A stretch of 64,000 nt of DNA from an uncultured Eubacteriales bacterium (GTDB lineage: Bacteria > Acidobacteriota > Aminicenantia > Aminicenantales > Aminicenantaceae), in assembly GCA_964429795.1 (NCBI GenBank), contig CAYSCW010000004.1, forward strand, positions 35,939 through 99,938, written 5' to 3'. The notes under the pieces were generated by a model. It searched no databases and was not told the origin of the DNA. It saw only the letters and a list, made by a program, of their open reading frames with translations. Below, one piece after another: positions 24,420-33,547 of this stretch. The position numbers and the translations under genes were made by a program. Position 1 is the stretch's first letter; each line of letters starts with the position of its first letter.

Positions 24420-26942
24420 TCAAGATACTCCTGATCTTTCTAGAGTCCTCATATTCTTTTTGCACTTCCTAACTTTATCCTCAAAGGGAATATCGTCGAT
24501 CAAGGGCAAGAGAAATTCCATCATTTCTTTCTTCAGCATGTTATCCAGAAGTTCGATGGAATAGTCGATGGATTTTTTTGTCCCTGCAGTGATGTTCTGG
24601 TACGCCTTGATGACATCTTCTTTAGCATAGACCAGACTCAGAAGTTCAAAAATATGCTTAAGGCAACGCGCTAAATTTTTTTCTAGCTCCTTAGCTAGAG
24701 ACACTTTTTTCTCATCCCCTTTCAAGCCGTCGATTTCTATCAAGATCAGATAGCTTTTCTTTATCATCCGCAGAGTTTCAGGAAGAACAATCTCATCTCG
24801 AAAATGGATATGGGGGTGTTTTGATTTCATCTTGAACATGGCCTCGATAATCTCCGACTCTACATCACCGTCTCTTCTTTTCAGCCCTAAGGAAAGGAGA
24901 TAGGCAGCTTTTTGAGTCCCTGTGTTGGCTAAGATATCAGGGATGGCCTTTCGGACTCGGATGTCTTCATCCTGGTCTCCCAGATAATCTTTTAGTGTCC
25001 CCACGATTTTGTTTCCATATTCAGCCAGAGCCTCACTGGCTATCCTTTGGGTAGAAGGCCTGCGAAGATGAGGAATGATGAGAGGAACAAAATCTCTTGT
25101 CTTCAGTTTTCCAGCGCTCTCCACAGCATATTTGATGACTTCTGGCGATTTATCTCGAAGAAGCTTGTTGAGATTATGAGTAAGAGAGGAGGTTGGTTTC
25201 ATCATACCCAGAACCTTGGCTGCTTCCATCTTGGACACTTCCGCATCCTTGCTTTCCTCATCGGCGATTTTATCGATGTGCTCTTTCATCAACTCCTGGT
25301 AGACATCGAGGGACATGATTTCCTTAACCTGGGCATCGAGATCTTCCTCCTCCAGAACATCATCCATTTCAGGAAGCAAGGCCTCGCCATCCAATTCCAG
25401 AAGGGAATCCATAGAGCCGGCTTTTATTTCATCAGATTTGCCGGAGATTATTCCTTTTAATGCAGGACTTAATTTATCTCTTTTGACTAGGTCAAAAAGA
25501 TTCATAGCATAAAGGACTGAACTCCTTTTTTTGCTTTCCAGAGTGTCAAAAACAAGTTTTGTCATATCGATATCAATCTTTTCTCCGATAAATTTATCCG
25601 CGTCTTCCCATTTTATTCTTAAGTTTCTCTTGACAATACCCACATACTCCTTGGTAATCATGAGATTAAGGCCAATCCATACAATGAGAAAAATTATGGT
25701 GACCAAACTGATTCGGACGACAGATAAATGAAAAACGAAAAGGAACAATAGGATAATGAGAGCTCCAAGACCTTTTGCAAATTTGTTGACAAACATATCG
25801 ATGAAGACCTTGGCTTTATATTTGATGTCAGGAGAAATGGGGATGTAAAGAAGCTCTCTCACTGACTGATTGAGGGAATAGGCCAGACTTTTATCCGCCC
25901 CTTTAATCAAGACTCCCCAGTAAATCAAATAGAGCATGGGGATGAAGAAGATGGCCACAGAACCCACCAATAAGAGAAAAGGGGCAACTAAAAGCGCCGC
26001 GCGGATTCCGAAGTTCTTCAGGATACGGCTGGTGAGAAGGACATGTAGCAAATAGGAAAATACAAGCATTCCAGTAAAAAAAATCCCCAGAAAAGAAGTC
26101 ATAGCATCTTTCTTGACCAAAACCTCCCCATCTACGGCCTCTGTGAAATGCTTTTCAACCACAGAATTGAACTGAAAATCGATCAAAGTGGTCACCACAA
26201 AAGTCGCAATCATGATCCCGCAGAGAAGCAGCAAATAACGATTTTTCCTGATCAACTGTAGGCTTTTGCCGTATCCTACCCTGGTTTTTTTCTTATCTCT
26301 AGTGGGCTGAGTCTCTTCCTCTTTTTCTCCTGGTATGCATTTTGAGATGAAAGTGATAATAACCAGACAAAAGATAAGCATCAGAGGACAAATCAAAAGG
26401 AGGTTTTCTGTTCCGAATTGCATGGCCAACAACGAGGCCAAAAGGGCTCCTGCTACTCCTCCCAAAAGTCCTCCGCTTACCAGAAAGCCAATCAGTCTTT
26501 TTGCCTGCCTTGGGTTATAGATATCGTTAACCAATATCCAGAATTGAGTGACAGATGTGGCTATGAAAATATCTGCCCAAAACCAATAAATTATGGAAAG
26601 CCAATCCCAGTTATATCTGAAAAACATCCAGAACAGCAAAAGACAGACTATAAAAAAAACCAGGCTCAAAGAGATGTAAACACGTCTCTTCATCACATGC
26701 AACAACCTGGAATTTAAAGAAACCACAAAACCGATCAAGACGGCTGTCAAAAGGTAGGCATAAGGGAGTCTGGTGAAAGACAGGCTTTCCAGGAAGAGCG
26801 AAATCTTGACGGGTTTGATGATGTAAACCGAGGAAGTGATGAGGAAAAAATAAATGAACAAGAGAATAGAGGAAGAAACTTCCCCTGCTCTTATGTCAGC
26901 AAAGTAGGATAAAAGCTTTTGGACTCGGTTCTTAGCCATCAA
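24420..26942 (-). CDS. TLC-family (ATP/ADP-translocase-like, TC 2.A.12) transporter fused to a C-terminal HEAT-repeat domain
   Basis: 840 aa. The N-terminal ~430 aa are polytopic and carry the TLC signature block FWILVNDIYNPRQAKRLIGF (compare Tlc [18 protein letters not shown]). The C-terminal ~400 aa are soluble with repeated helical HEAT/PBS-lyase-like units. The gene overlaps its paralog by 11 nt. Confidence 0.6.
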   Translation of the reverse strand: MMAKNRVQKLLSYFADIRAGEVSSSILLFIYFFLITSSVYIIKPVKISLFLESLSFTRLPYAYLLTAVLIGFVVSLNSRLLHVMKRRVYISLSLVFFIVCLLLFWMFFRYNWDWLSIIYWFWADIFIATSVTQFWILVNDIYNPRQAKRLIGFLVSGGLLGGVAGALLASLLAMQFGTENLLLICPLMLIFCLVIITFISKCIPGEKEEETQPTRDKKKTRVGYGKSLQLIRKNRYLLLLCGIMIATFVVTTLIDFQFNSVVEKHFTEAVDGEVLVKKDAMTSFLGIFFTGMLVFSYLLHVLLTSRILKNFGIRAALLVAPFLLLVGSVAIFFIPMLYLIYWGVLIKGADKSLAYSLNQSVRELLYIPISPDIKYKAKVFIDMFVNKFAKGLGALIILLFLFVFHLSVVRISLVTIIFLIVWIGLNLMITKEYVGIVKRNLRIKWEDADKFIGEKIDIDMTKLVFDTLESKKRSSVLYAMNLFDLVKRDKLSPALKGIISGKSDEIKAGSMDSLLELDGEALLPEMDDVLEEEDLDAQVKEIMSLDVYQELMKEHIDKIADEESKDAEVSKMEAAKVLGMMKPTSSLTHNLNKLLRDKSPEVIKYAVESAGKLKTRDFVPLIIPHLRRPSTQRIASEALAEYGNKIVGTLKDYLGDQDEDIRVRKAIPDILANTGTQKAAYLLSLGLKRRDGDVESEIIEAMFKMKSKHPHIHFRDEIVLPETLRMIKKSYLILIEIDGLKGDEKKVSLAKELEKNLARCLKHIFELLSLVYAKEDVIKAYQNITAGTKKSIDYSIELLDNMLKKEMMEFLLPLIDDIPFEDKVRKCKKNMRTLERSGVS

Positions 26943-32173: not shown

Positions 32174-33547
32174 ATGAGAGGAAACGAAAAAGAATCTTCT
32201 GGCCTAGTCTATCGCTTTTTCCGGCTCTTTACAGTAGTCCATCCTGGTGAAGGGCTGACAGTTTTTCTCTTGACTCTTAATATTTTTTTGATCCTGACGG
32301 CTTATTCGATATTAAAACCAGTCAGAAAAGCTTTAATCTTAACAGGACAAACCGCCGAAATCGAAGCCTATCTTTTTGGAGTTATGGCTATAGTACTTAT
32401 CTTCGTCATAAAAATATTCAGCTACCTTTCTGCTAAAGTCCCCCGTCAATTATTGATCACCTGGGTTACCCTCTTTTTTATCTTGAATCTAGCCATTTTT
32501 TATGTCTTACATCTTGCGGGAACCCCTCTAGGTACGTTGAGTGTCATCTTTTACATATGGGTTGGGATATACAACGTTTTTCTCATTGCTCAATTCTGGG
32601 GCTTTTCCAACGATATCTACACAGAGGAAGAAGGAAAAAGACTATTCGTATTGATCATGCTTGGACAAAACCTGGGAGCTGTCATCGGCAGCAAGATCCC
32701 TTCCTTACTGGTAAAACCAAAAGGACCATTAAGCCCCTTTCATTTTCTACTCCTCACTGGAGCCATCCTGGTCGCCTGCATTGTATTAACCCTTATTATC
32801 CACAAAAGAGAGATGGAAAGTGTAAAAAATAAACAGGCCCATCAAAAGGCAAAAGAAAAACATAAGAAAAAATTGAAGGAGAAGCCTTTGCCAAGGGGAG
32901 GCGGTTTTCGTTTGGTGTTTAAAAGTAGATATCTTCTCTTCATCGCCTTGGTTATCTTGGTGCTGAATTACGTCAATACAAATGGTGAATACATCAAATC
33001 CAAAGTATGGGATCGCACCGCTGAGCAGGCTAAGGAAACCGAAAAGATTAAAGGTTCAGAGGCGGCAGAGGCTGAATTTCTGACCAAATTAGATTCTGAC
33101 TTCAATTTTTTGGTTAATCTCTTTGCCCTGTTCATTCAACTCTTTCTGGTCTCGCGTATATTCAAGTGGTTCGGAGTTAAAGGAGCACTCCTCTTCCTCC
33201 CATTCATTTCCATTGGAGGTTATTTTTTCATTGCTTTAGGAGCCTCATTTATCCGGGTTAAATGGGCTAAGATCTTTGAAAACAGCACAGATTACTCCCT
33301 AATGAACACAACTCGAGGCGCCCTCTTCCTCATAACATCAAGAGAAGCAAAATACAAAGCCAAGGCAGCCATCGATACTTTTTTCGTGAGAACAGGGGAT
33401 TTATTACATAGCCTGACCGTTCTCCTTGGCACCACCTACCTCGCTTTTAGCCTGGAAAGTTTCGCCAAACTCAATGTGGGCATAGCTGTAGTCTGGATAA
33501 TCCTCTGTTTATTGGTTATAAGAGAACACAAGAGGTTATCAGCTTAA
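32174..33547 (+). CDS. TLC-family (ATP/ADP-translocase-like) transporter without a HEAT extension
   Basis: 457 aa, about 12 TM; the signature block IAQFWGFSNDIYTEEEGKRLFVLIMLGQNLG matches Rickettsia/Chlamydia Tlc ([28 protein letters not shown]). Confidence 0.7.
   Translation: MRGNEKESSGLVYRFFRLFTVVHPGEGLTVFLLTLNIFLILTAYSILKPVRKALILTGQTAEIEAYLFGVMAIVLIFVIKIFSYLSAKVPRQLLITWVTLFFILNLAIFYVLHLAGTPLGTLSVIFYIWVGIYNVFLIAQFWGFSNDIYTEEEGKRLFVLIMLGQNLGAVIGSKIPSLLVKPKGPLSPFHFLLLTGAILVACIVLTLIIHKREMESVKNKQAHQKAKEKHKKKLKEKPLPRGGGFRLVFKSRYLLFIALVILVLNYVNTNGEYIKSKVWDRTAEQAKETEKIKGSEAAEAEFLTKLDSDFNFLVNLFALFIQLFLVSRIFKWFGVKGALLFLPFISIGGYFFIALGASFIRVKWAKIFENSTDYSLMNTTRGALFLITSREAKYKAKAAIDTFFVRTGDLLHSLTVLLGTTYLAFSLESFAKLNVGIAVVWIILCLLVIREHKRLSA

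Follow-up and report, generated by a model that had tools for sequence, protein, structure and literature searches.

A ~14.5-kb island (positions 22696-37130 of the window, i.e., the whole 64,000-nucleotide stretch of Aminicenantaceae DNA analyzed here) was found to be conserved in Aminicenantes and related Acidobacteriota, where it was found again in scores of loci, and it holds three divergent members of the NTT/TLC transporter superfamily in two divergent gene modules. Module 1 carries two NTT-HEAT fusions among genes for a partner-switching set, while Module 2 comprises an exported PPP/ApaH-like phosphoesterase, three exported Fam20C-like kinases, a short NTT and a phytase-like beta-propeller. 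From gene context and fold, the best reading, to which we give a probability of roughly 35%, is that signal-gated, nucleotide-type transport supplies the extracytoplasmic kinases.

Three ORFs with a TLC motif had been pointed out in an earlier note on this DNA; all three were found, and the motif was present in each. The NTT-HEAT paralogs A (24420..26942, minus strand, 840 aa; ORF map, Pfam and AF2) and B (26932..29439, minus strand, 835 aa; ORF map and Pfam) share 46% identity along their whole length, and B is translationally coupled to A by an 11-nt overlap of the ORFs. The short paralog C (32174..33547, plus strand, 457 aa; Pfam TLC), which has no HEAT domain, is 27% identical to A over 450 aa (E 7e-34). 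The TLC signature block reads FWILVNDIYNPRQAKRLI in A, FWITVNDVFNPREVKRMI in B and FWGFSNDIYTEEEGKRLF in C, and aligns with that of Chlamydia pneumoniae NTT1 (FWGFANEITKIHEAKRFY). The Pfam TLC model (PF03219; the family is a member of the MFS clan) scored 57.8, 54.9 and 69.6 bits for A, B and C, respectively, with a gathering cutoff of 21. When the family profile was compared to all PDB sequences, the top matches were two NTT1 translocators (E 2.7e-17 and 1.3e-16), and the profile of C matched 9j3n with an E of 2.2e-12. In a structure search with the AF2 model, the five closest structures were the NTT1 entries 9j3n, 9j3l, 9j3m, 9j3j and 9j3o (TM-score at most 0.76), with all other MFS transporters ranking below them. 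A generic MFS assignment of the membrane domains was therefore rejected, since NTT1 topped both the sequence and the structure matches, although the MFS_1 model scored slightly above TLC for A (68.3 bits) and B (57.7 bits). Together, these results placed A, B and C in the NTT/TLC superfamily as divergent, non-canonical members, with A and B being of the NTT-HEAT type and C belonging to a related short clade. Across at least eight phyla, the TLC signature blocks were the best-conserved parts of NTT-HEAT, with W135, N139, K148, R149, R362, E363, P368, K374, K378 and D382 being at least 94% identical; purifying selection thus acts on the transporter core.

The C-terminal extensions of A and B, put at about 400 aa in the earlier note, proved to be real HEAT domains. 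In A, a 12-helix TLC/MFS domain (residues 1-441) is followed by conserved juxtamembrane helices (residues 448-505), a disordered acidic linker (residues 502-533) and the HEAT solenoid (residues ~545-837). HEAT_2 (Pfam) scored 46.5 bits for A and 29.0 bits for B, both over the cutoff, the HEAT profile matched designed HEAT-like alphaRep proteins (E 2e-12), and AF2 predicted ~18 stacked helices for residues ~545-837 with a pLDDT of ~90, with uncertain geometry between the domains (pTM 0.54). The same three lines of evidence ruled out that the region is of low complexity. That such a fusion in a free-living bacterium would be unusual did not hold, since a 2017 study had already described both NTT-HEAT fusions and the TLC genes of free-living bacteria as widespread and monophyletic (Major, Embley & Williams, Genome Biol Evol 9:480; PMC5381601). 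The published family, which is uncharacterized, has the same build as A and B (N-terminal NTT/TLC and C-terminal HEAT_2 repeats), and it shares with them free-living hosts and linkage to signaling partners (PMC5381601). However, the published proteins have a cNMP-binding domain (cNBD) downstream or fused, which the Aminicenantes version lacks. The latter is instead flanked by STAS on the upstream and FHA-GAF-PP2C on the downstream side, has an RsbW-type kinase close by, is often a tandem duplicate (as in A and B), and lies beside an exported Fam20-like kinase operon holding a third, HEAT-less NTT. We found no description of the STAS/PP2C/RsbW setting, the tandem or the Fam20-like neighborhood in the searchable literature. 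The genomic context thus appears to be the new part, the fusion itself being already known.

Membership in the superfamily did not extend to the strict ATP/ADP-translocase type, as which the three proteins had first been read. They share with canonical NTT/Tlc/Npt proteins (TC 2.A.12, TIGR00769; structures 9j3j-9j3o of AtNTT1 and C. pneumoniae NTT1) the fold of 12 helices (TM-score ~0.75) as well as the signature blocks FW.F.N(E/D)I....AKR and KS..YSL....(K/R)E..YIP.....K.K.K..ID, but differ in the extra HEAT domain of A and B and in their free-living host. With TIGR00769, they scored only 52-68 bits, about one-seventh of the cutoff of 387; identity to canonical NTTs was ~20%, and in the tree all three fell outside the canonical clade with a long branch between. 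C was placed in a distinct short-NTT clade (bootstrap 99), and B clustered with L045-type NTT-HEAT (bootstrap 95). Four diagnostic charged residues, K155, E245, E385 and K527, are important for ATP/ADP transport in AtNTT1, K527 for ATP binding. Their equivalents are Y, D124, D255 and K390 in A (three of the four charges kept), Y, N, D and K in B (two of four), and F, G, E272 and D409 in C (one of four, with an Asp at the K527 position). K155 is thus absent from all three, while E245 and K527 are partly kept (D and K in A, N and K in B, G and D in C). In one locus (L010), a different short NTT with all four charges (K/D/D/K) occupies the operon slot of C.

Classical energy parasitism, in which canonical antiporters would import host ATP in a hidden host-associated lifestyle, is very improbable on these grounds. 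It draws on the family name alone, relatives being annotated as "AAA family ATP:ADP antiporter" or "Npt1/Npt2 family nucleotide transporter", and is countered by the TIGR00769 scores, the position outside the canonical clade and the absence of K155. NTT-HEAT is also common among free-living bacteria (PMC5381601). Moreover, a free-living anaerobe-type host was borne out by the Ca. Aminicenantes lineage, with related MAG chromosomes of 3.2-4.4 Mb, and by extensive catabolic genes in the window, acyl-CoA and possibly aromatic (BcrAD_BadFG, HGD-D, ECH and thiolases). These genes are not kept beside the cluster in other genomes, and the adjacency to aromatic catabolism, taken in the earlier note as a functional clue, is incidental. 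The informative neighbors are the STAS, PP2C, RsbW, Metallophos and Fam20-like genes, absent from that note.

The same divergence could mean that the likeness to NTTs is one of fold ancestry only and that these proteins carry a non-nucleotide substrate such as another organophosphate, or an exported second messenger, e.g., cAMP. The ~20% identity, the long branch, the incomplete set of diagnostic residues and an MFS_1 score at or above that of TLC for A and B are in line with this, a link to cyclic nucleotides may be read from the cNBD and GAF partners, and NTT substrates are not predictable from sequence (PMC4256464). We nevertheless hold it improbable, given that the basic residues in common with NTTs (K148/R149, R362, K374 and K378) suggest a polyanionic, phosphate-rich ligand and that the kinase context points to NTPs.

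In Module 1, the genes overlap or are tightly packed. The operon starts with a single-domain STAS protein of the anti-sigma-antagonist type (29470..29817, minus strand; Pfam STAS 43.4 bits, and 52.0 bits with TIGR00377, slightly under the cutoff of 53.45), whose phospho-acceptor motif FIDS57FGVG was invariant in 47 orthologs. It ends, 38 nt downstream of A, with an RsbU-like FHA-GAF-SpoIIE (PP2C) phosphatase (22696..24381, minus strand; SpoIIE 174.7, FHA 65.7 and GAF 48.1 bits in Pfam). The order STAS, NTT-HEAT (one or two copies), PP2C was seen in nearly all of ~50 Aminicenantes/Acidobacteriota loci with sufficient flank, the PP2C gene directly following NTT-HEAT in ~50 loci. An RsbW/SpoIIAB-type serine kinase (36645..37130, minus strand; Pfam HATPase_c_2 98.7 bits, and 48.9 bits with NCBIfam RsbW, under its cutoff) immediately follows the PP2C gene where the locus has only one NTT-HEAT. 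STAS, RsbW-type kinase and PP2C make up a complete partner-switching set, the same trio as in RsbV-RsbW-RsbU and SpoIIAA-SpoIIAB-SpoIIE, i.e., a STAS protein with a conserved phospho-Ser, a HATPase_c_2 serine kinase and a SpoIIE-type PP2C. In contrast to the RsbV-RsbW-RsbU type, the phosphatase bears FHA and GAF sensor domains, the island has no sigma factor, and one or two NTT-HEAT genes stand between the STAS and phosphatase genes; this insertion makes NTT-HEAT a likely input or output of the switch. Pfam annotation of the island revealed neither a sigma factor nor another obvious output gene, and sigma-independent partner-switching systems exist, e.g., SypA/SypE (reviewed in PMC8256260). 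In the 252-bp divergent intergenic region between the two operons (29818..30069; ORF map), no Rfam elements were found, and a promoter scan gave matches no more than chance.

In other phyla, a cNBD was adjacent to or fused with NTT-HEAT in all 18 loci, a linkage already reported (PMC5381601), and 14 of these loci had HK and/or REC genes and five had REC-PP2C. The adjoining histidine kinases start with PAS at residue ~17 and have no membrane sensor of their own. Such linkage would fit a transceptor, or trigger-transporter, in which the NTT fold senses a periplasmic or extracellular phosphorylated ligand with no net flux and binding is signaled through the HEAT scaffold to STAS/RsbW/PP2C or, elsewhere, to cNBD proteins, soluble PAS histidine kinases and REC-PP2C. 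UhpC, the E. coli MFS sensor that signals to UhpB, is an analogue. As in UhpC/UhpB, DctA/DcuS and BceAB/BceS, a transporter homologue is genetically coupled to cytoplasmic signaling proteins, although the transporter family is another one and the coupling presumably runs through the HEAT solenoid rather than through transmembrane contact with a kinase. NTT-HEAT is invariably found in signaling operons, the island has no obvious output gene, and the single-copy Aminicenantes NTT-HEATs no longer have equivalents of E385 and K527 either, a loss more in keeping with a sensor than with a carrier. We regard this as possible but rather doubtful: the TLC core, including the Lys and Arg residues in common with true NTTs, is best conserved, as expected of a working alternating-access carrier, and neither C nor the exported kinases would have a role. 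Sensing and transport are not mutually exclusive, and the regulated-exchange or sensing role first proposed for these proteins is compatible with the STAS/PP2C/RsbW context.

Module 2 opens with a Metallophos phosphoesterase (30070..31215, plus strand; Pfam 54.1 bits), a predicted lipoprotein (lipobox LLFSC) with the PPP motifs GDIHGD, GDxxDRG and GNHE. Its nearest relatives, by weak matches, are ApaH/PrpE Ap4A hydrolases and PPP Ser/Thr phosphatases (NCBIfam ApaH 28.3 bits, PrpE weak). It is followed by Fam20C-like kinase-fold paralog 1 (31175..32005, plus strand), which has its own N-terminal hydrophobic signal, a weak match to TIGR03843 and, as the most divergent of the three, 28% identity to paralog 3. 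Paralogs 2 (34941..35768, plus strand) and 3 (35829..36641, plus strand) have signal peptides (MKRK-h-region-LLAQ|F in paralog 3), and K78, E94, D170 and D188 were invariant in the alignment of all three. The AF2 model of paralog 3 (pLDDT 87, pTM 0.86) retrieved the Golgi casein kinase Fam20C (4kqa, 5yh0 and 4kqb) at the top of a Foldseek search (E ~2e-7), followed by PI4K and PI3K, and its motifs EIAAYRLD, FDNLIANEDRHQNQ and LIDHSRSF align with Fam20A and Fam20B. The fold and the motifs EIAA(F/Y)xLD, FDxLIxNxDRH and (I/L)D(N/H) are thus common to these proteins and the Fam20 kinases (Fam20C Golgi casein kinase, Fam20B xylosylkinase and Fam20A pseudokinase). An SdiA-regulated/phytase-like beta-propeller (33709..34542, minus strand; PF06977 59.9 bits, Phytase-like 34.5 bits) is also predicted to be exported. 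By a simple hydrophobicity heuristic rather than SignalP, N-terminal hydrophobic signals were called in 31 of 40 kinase-like and 19 of 29 Metallophos proteins, compared to 0/16 RsbW, 1/45 STAS and 0/57 PP2C proteins in the cytoplasmic set.

The kinase-like genes are closely linked to the transporters. In 26 of 32 loci anchored independently on the kinase gene, an NTT gene lay within 6 kb, and in 14 of 17 loci the short NTT had a kinase-like gene no more than 1.5 kb away. RsbW was present in 26 and the beta-propeller gene in 23 of the 32 kinase-anchored loci, and Metallophos-Fam20-like fusions occurred in 13 genome loci and 4 metagenome loci. In three Latescibacteria-type loci, a Metallophos gene lies directly upstream of NTT-HEAT. 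Together with the ApaH/PrpE likeness, typical of dinucleoside-polyphosphate hydrolases, the latter would suit salvage, with A, B and C taking up nucleotides, NAD, dinucleoside polyphosphates or related compounds that necromass or the pore water of the sediment provides, the exported phosphoesterase trimming substrates and the HEAT/partner-switch module matching uptake to demand. Characterized members of the NTT family do import ATP, other NTPs and NAD (PMC5381601, PMC4256464). We consider salvage unlikely, as it leaves unexplained the three exported kinases, the phosphoesterase fusions and the tight linkage to C, which lacks the nucleotide-binding lysines K155 and K527.

Signal-gated supply of the exported kinases is favored by the NTT1 proteins as best PDB matches, the conserved TLC core, the signaling linkage, the export signals and phosphoesterase fusions of the kinase-like proteins, their Fam20C-like fold together with the NTT-kinase linkage, and the short NTT of L010 with its four charges. 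The NTT proteins would be inner-membrane carriers of an anionic, nucleotide-type substrate; in the most economical version, ATP or another NTP would go out and NDP (+Pi) come in, i.e., NTT exchange run in the export direction. The outward NTP could serve as co-substrate for the exported kinases, much as the Fam20 kinases of the animal secretory pathway, e.g., Fam20C, need ATP import into the ER/Golgi lumen. Like these, the bacterial proteins have N-terminal export signals, and their genes adjoin a putative nucleotide carrier, but they are minimal (~270 aa) and known here from genes and predicted fold, their partner is an NTT-family gene and not a carrier of the SLC35 type, and some are fusions with a PPP-like phosphoesterase. 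In A and B, the STAS/RsbW/PP2C switch may dock onto the cytoplasmic HEAT solenoid, as a cNMP-binding protein and two-component proteins may do in other phyla, so that transport would be controlled by the phosphorylation or second-messenger state of the cytoplasm, or would signal to it. This reading is weakened by C, which amid the kinase genes keeps one of four charges with an Asp at the K527 position, by the loss of K155 in all three proteins, and by the kinase-NTT linkage being limited to one lineage, the NTT-HEAT of other phyla having no Fam20-like genes. Against export, the periplasm is generally regarded as free of ATP, and ATP sent there could escape via porins. If the reading is true, distant relatives of parasite ATP/ADP translocases would feed phosphorylation outside the cytoplasm in a free-living sediment bacterium.

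The island analyzed here (window 22696-37130) encodes three proteins that the earlier note had read as TLC paralogs, and the open reading frames were exactly as it described. A (840 aa; 24420-26942, minus strand, from the ORF map) and B (835 aa; 26932-29439, minus strand) are NTT-HEAT paralogs with genes overlapping by 11 nt, and C (457 aa; 32174-33547, plus strand) is a short NTT without a C-terminal extension. Identity was 46% between A and B over their full length and 27% between A and C over the membrane domain of 450 aa (E 7e-34). All three exceeded the gathering cutoff of 21 bits for Pfam TLC (PF03219), with 57.8 bits for A, 54.9 for B, and 69.6 for C. 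The TLC signature motif reported in the note was real: the block FW..N(D/E)I...AKR is present in A, B, and C and aligned to the canonical ATP/ADP translocators CpNTT1 of Chlamydia pneumoniae (FWGFANEITKIHEAKRFY) and AtNTT1, and a second block, (K/D)KS..YSL....(K/R)E..YIP.....K.K.K..ID, was common to all five proteins.

TLC is a member of the MFS clan, some databases give relatives the plain label 'MFS transporter', and the Pfam MFS_1 score was slightly higher than the TLC score for A (68.3 bits) and B (57.7 bits). Despite this margin, the PDB sequence matches of the membrane part were NTT1 chains only (E 7.6e-8 with a single sequence), and family profiles matched NTT1 at E 2.7e-17 and 1.3e-16 (A/B) and 2.2e-12 (C). 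The AF2 model of A (pLDDT 76, 12 helices) had NTT1 entries as its best five Foldseek matches, with TM-scores up to 0.76; NorA, VMAT, MdfA, and others ranked below NTT1, the next matches being generic MFS proteins with E values of at least 4e-5. Three independent tests, i.e., PDB sequence matches, Foldseek ranking, and signature blocks, therefore favor NTT kinship, and a generic-MFS artefact, the risk named in the note, was ruled out. We conclude that A, B, and C are members of the TLC/NTT superfamily. A has more than 1,100 relatives, the closest of which are from Ca. Aminicenantes MAGs and already carry the label 'ATP/ADP translocase/HEAT repeat protein'.

A and B carry the NTT domain with a C-terminal HEAT-repeat fusion (PF13646/PF02985), and both exceeded the Pfam HEAT_2 cutoff. 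In A, TM12 is followed by a conserved helical juxtamembrane segment (residues 448-505) with a motif found across phyla (SSVLYAMNLFDL), and then, in the AF2 model, by a disordered acidic linker (502-533) and approximately 18 stacked helices with a pLDDT of ~90. The family profile also matched designed HEAT-like alphaRep proteins (E 2e-12). The HEAT_2 score, the modeled helices, and the alphaRep match together ruled out a low-complexity region and bore out the ~400-aa HEAT extensions proposed for two of the paralogs. By MFS topology, the HEAT domain is cytoplasmic. The best-conserved stretches among 18 NTT-HEAT proteins, which represented at least 8 phyla, were the TLC blocks (residues 121-160 and 361-400) and part of the HEAT domain near the C-terminus (761-800); 57 NTT-HEAT positions were conserved at 94% or more, and homology was full-length, including the HEAT part, down to 26 to 30% identity across phyla.

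NTT-HEAT has previously been described as a monophyletic fusion, conserved across a very wide range of bacteria, free-living ones among them, often with a cNMP-binding domain downstream of or fused to it, and with family function unknown (Major et al. 2017, PMC5381601). In the searchable literature, we found no NTT-HEAT function reported beyond that study. As proteins, A, B, and C add members to groups already known, NTT-HEAT and 'other NTT'. Their context is different: the cNMP-binding neighbor, frequent though not strictly defining in the published family, is absent from the window and from the Aminicenantes loci.

The scores for TIGR00769 (A 52.0, B 53.2, and C 68.5 bits) fell below its cutoff of 387.2. 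Four charged residues of AtNTT1, K155, E245, E385, and K527, are conserved and functionally important, with roles for K155 in binding ADP, for K527 in binding ATP, and for E245 in translocation (PMC3306366, PMC4256464). Our residue comparison rests on these four mutagenesis-defined positions, with the CpNTT1 and AtNTT1 sequences rebuilt from HMMER alignments and the AtNTT1 numbering set by one uniquely consistent offset (K155 = IIPFLK, E385 = NLVE, K527 = NPLGK). The equivalents, in that order, were Y/D124/D255/K390 in A, Y/N/D/K in B, and F/G/E272/D409 in C, the K155 call being the least certain of the four because this position lies in a poorly aligned loop at ~20% identity. The four-charge set was thus incomplete in all three proteins, and C lacked three of the four canonical residues, with Asp at the K527 position. 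NTT-fold carriers of a non-nucleotide substrate would combine this fold with such an altered charge set; we regard this reading as improbable. The loss of the E385 and K527 equivalents in single-copy NTT-HEATs favors another one, a transceptor, in which NTT-HEAT would be a sensor variant; we consider this alternative somewhat unlikely.

In a neighbor-joining tree (200 bootstraps), in which CpNTT1 and AtNTT1 (57% identical) were the two sequences on the canonical side, a long branch parted this pair from A, B, C, and the locus relatives (19 to 24% identical), and neither A, B, nor C was placed inside the canonical NTT clade. A and B fell within an Aminicenantes NTT-HEAT clade (bootstrap 83), A with the single-copy type (77) and B with the type found at the related locus L045 (95), and C fell in a separate short-NTT clade (99). 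Bootstraps were 25 or less at the nodes linking the Aminicenantes NTT-HEAT proteins with the short NTTs and with NTT-HEAT from elsewhere among the phyla, and the deep order of NTT-HEAT, the short type of C, and a second short type was without support. We conclude that A, B, and C are non-canonical NTTs. NTT/Tlc genes are often taken as a marker of energy parasitism; for these non-canonical proteins, we hold classical energy parasitism to be extremely improbable.

The second short, HEAT-less type, represented by L070:5619-6956 and L010:388-1713, has kept the four charged positions as K/D/D/K. It lies directly upstream of NTT-HEAT in Balneolales (L070) and fills the operon slot of C in the Aminicenantes island of L010. 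In these systems, the strongest candidate for a genuine nucleotide carrier is probably this second short type.

A 115-aa STAS protein is encoded upstream of B, with a 30-nt gap, and an FHA-GAF-SpoIIE (PP2C) phosphatase (SpoIIE 174.7 bits) downstream of A, with a 38-nt gap. The gene for an RsbW/SpoIIAB-type HATPase_c_2 serine kinase (161 aa; 36645-37130, minus strand; HATPase_c_2 98.7 bits) lies 7 to 14 kb from the STAS and PP2C genes in the window. Across a synteny set of 79 genome loci anchored on NTT-HEAT, the order STAS, NTT-HEAT (1 to 2 copies), FHA-GAF-PP2C was found in almost every Aminicenantes/Acidobacteriota locus whose flanks were long enough. Where NTT-HEAT was single, the RsbW-type kinase gene directly followed the PP2C gene on the same strand, and at 13 loci the STAS, RsbW-type, and PP2C genes were co-linear in one operon. 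The STAS phospho-acceptor motif F-I-D-S-F-G-V-G (S57) was invariant in 47 orthologs. As predicted from their domains, the STAS, RsbW-type, and PP2C proteins are a complete partner-switching triad around a membrane protein. RsbV/RsbW/RsbU systems likewise have three components; here, in contrast, the sigma-factor target is absent from the island, and a Pfam search covering the ORFs of the island and its flanks, as distinct from the rest of the genome, found no sigma-70-family domain. A 230-aa ORF beside the RsbW-type kinase gene (37426-38118, plus strand) had no Pfam or NCBIfam match and is no recognizable sigma factor. Nothing relevant on partner switching combined with HEAT and transporters was found in the searchable literature. 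A scan for promoters and terminators placed promoter-like sites in the island at chance level (26 versus 25.9 expected), and an Rfam scan of the window gave no riboswitch or other Rfam element.

We also compared 18 loci from other phyla (Zixibacteria, Latescibacteria, Ignavibacteria, Balneolales, Fibrobacteres, and Krumholzibacteria). A cNBD protein followed or was fused to NTT-HEAT in 18/18, soluble PAS histidine kinases and/or receiver proteins were present in 14/18, and a REC-PP2C phosphatase was present in 5/18. Directly upstream of NTT-HEAT stood a Metallophos gene at three of the 18 loci and a second-type short NTT likewise at three of the 18; in Latescibacteria-type loci the Metallophos gene overlaps the NTT-HEAT start. 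In Zixibacteria, Latescibacteria, and Fibrobacteres (L061:9819-13567, L064:5709-12448, and L078:6069-11836), the partners of NTT-HEAT in its operons are a cNBD, either as a small separate protein or as a fusion, soluble PAS histidine kinases, a REC-PP2C phosphatase, and a lone receiver. Two kinds of component recur near NTT-HEAT, PP2C phosphatases and sensor domains of the cyclic-nucleotide type (cNBD, GAF), and from the cNBD, two-component, and PP2C neighbors across loci we conclude that NTT-HEAT lies consistently within signaling operons.

The second module runs divergently from the STAS operon, in the order Metallophos gene, 276-aa Fam20-like paralog, C, SdiA-regulated protein, and two more paralogs. 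The Metallophos phosphoesterase (30070-31215, plus strand), with a lipobox-like LLFSC and PPP motifs, is weakly ApaH/PrpE/PPP-like, and its gene and the first kinase-like gene share 41 nt. The three paralogs of the kinase-like family (31175-32005, 34941-35768, and 35829-36641, all plus strand) are ~270 aa long, carry predicted signal peptides, and have no Pfam family; every one of their 3,196 relatives is labeled 'hypothetical'. Between the two kinase-containing gene sets lies the gene for a predicted exported SdiA-regulated / phytase-like beta-propeller (33709-34542, minus strand), which is kept in 23/32 kinase-anchored loci and might act as a substrate or an esterase.

The Pfam Fam20C score of the paralogs was below the cutoff, and their best PDB sequence matches were Fam20B and Fam20A, with which they have motifs in common (EIAAYRLD / EIAAFHLD, FDNLIANEDRH / FDFLIGNMDRH, and LIDHS / HLDNA). 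The AF2 model of the kinase-like protein (pLDDT 87, pTM 0.86) was nearest to Fam20C, the casein kinase of the Golgi, with PI4K and PI3K next in rank, and K78, E94, D170, and D188 were invariant across the three paralogs. Predicted features thus include the Fam20 hallmarks, i.e., the kinase fold, the catalytic-loop DRH..N, the metal-binding Asp, the EIAAxxLD helix, and an export signal. A heuristic for N-terminal hydrophobic signals was positive for 31/40 kinase-like and 19/29 Metallophos proteins, compared to 0/16 RsbW, 1/45 STAS, and 0/57 PP2C proteins in the cytoplasmic comparison set. C's neighbors hence have a Fam20-like fold, as modeled, and export signals, and the paralogs may represent a bacterial family of exported atypical kinases that has yet to be described; the searchable literature held no relevant work on bacterial periplasmic Fam20-like kinases.

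Metallophos and kinase form a single fused protein at 13 genome loci and 4 metagenome loci (among them L006:1140-2996, L014:541-2391, L024:2106-3950, L039:1498-3474, and L076:4547-6412). A kinase-like gene lay within 1.5 kb of the short NTT at 14 of the 17 short-NTT loci. Loci were also collected independently with the kinase gene as the anchor, which gave 32 metagenome loci with a length of 10 kb or more. An NTT (26/32), an RsbW kinase (26/32), and a Metallophos gene (25/32) lay within 6 kb of this anchor; these counts are not phylogenetically independent, since the linkage is in one lineage and both collection scans gave mainly close relatives. An HMM search found no counterparts of the Aminicenantes Fam20-like and Metallophos proteins beside NTT-HEAT in other phyla, and the upstream Metallophos proteins at the three loci mentioned are of a different subfamily. 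Within Aminicenantes, the two modules form a conserved island.

Acyl-CoA metabolism gene blocks flank the island (window 9087-21585 and 39138-45790), with thiolases, SDR, a 3HCDH-ECH fusion, ECH, ACAD, an ADP-forming acyl-CoA synthetase, and an SSF symporter, as well as BcrAD_BadFG and HGD-D (2-hydroxyacyl-CoA dehydratase / benzoyl-CoA-reductase-like). This gene content would suit an anaerobe that ferments amino or aromatic acids. A xanthine-dehydrogenase-family molybdoenzyme, with a fused 2Fe-2S and MoCo-binding subunit and an FAD subunit, was also seen (window 3683-7428, minus strand). A functional tie of the NTT island to the acyl-CoA/aromatic-type genes was ruled out, as the two are not syntenic in other genomes. 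Of the interpretation in the earlier note, the superfamily and the HEAT domain stood, and the aromatic-catabolism neighborhood as a clue to role fell away.

The exported kinases would need a nucleotide co-substrate outside, and the island's only candidate carriers are of the NTT family, which to our knowledge is the only family of transporters with established counter-exchange of nucleotides. On these grounds, we propose as the simplest model that NTT-family carriers would export ATP or another NTP to the periplasm in exchange for NDP, and that the exported NTP would fuel the Fam20C-like kinases, whose genes have a PPP-like phosphatase as partner or, at some loci, as fusion. The HEAT solenoid would serve as the docking site at which the STAS/RsbW/PP2C switch gates or monitors transport; in other phyla, cNBD and two-component proteins would take the place of the partner switch. 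We put the probability of NTP export for NDP with a partner switch gating or monitoring through HEAT at roughly 0.35. Counting against it are C, with one of four canonical residues, the single-copy NTT-HEATs, in which the E385 and K527 equivalents are lost, the kinase linkage within one lineage alone, and the periplasm itself, which is usually regarded as ATP-free and leaky. Transport in the opposite direction, as salvage import by the NTT proteins, appears to us to be of low probability. The more specific proposal for Aminicenantes, an extracytoplasmic phosphorylation system in which NTT-exported NTP would fuel the Fam20C-like kinases and the switch on HEAT would gate supply, we consider unlikely.

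As far as the searchable literature shows, the Aminicenantes arrangement is an undescribed variant, with tandem NTT-HEAT genes in a partner-switching operon, no sigma factor in the island, and an adjacent operon for predicted exported Fam20-like kinases, a PPP-like phosphoesterase, and a third NTT. A, B, and C add to the evidence that most NTT family diversity is in free-living bacteria. NTT-HEAT has been without a functional lead since 2017, though it is found in cyanobacteria, Chlamydia trachomatis, and oomycetes, and the conserved contexts, i.e., the sigma-less triad in the island, the cNBD/two-component neighbors elsewhere, and the Fam20C-like operon with a third NTT, give this orphan family its first concrete, testable functional hypotheses. 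If true, the export model would provide the first function for the widespread NTT-HEAT family and a prokaryotic parallel to the secretory pathway, where ATP imported into the lumen serves Fam20C. Periplasmic nucleotide export, if confirmed, would challenge the assumption that there is no ATP-dependent chemistry in the periplasm, and would make bacterial relatives of secretory-pathway kinases envelope enzymes.
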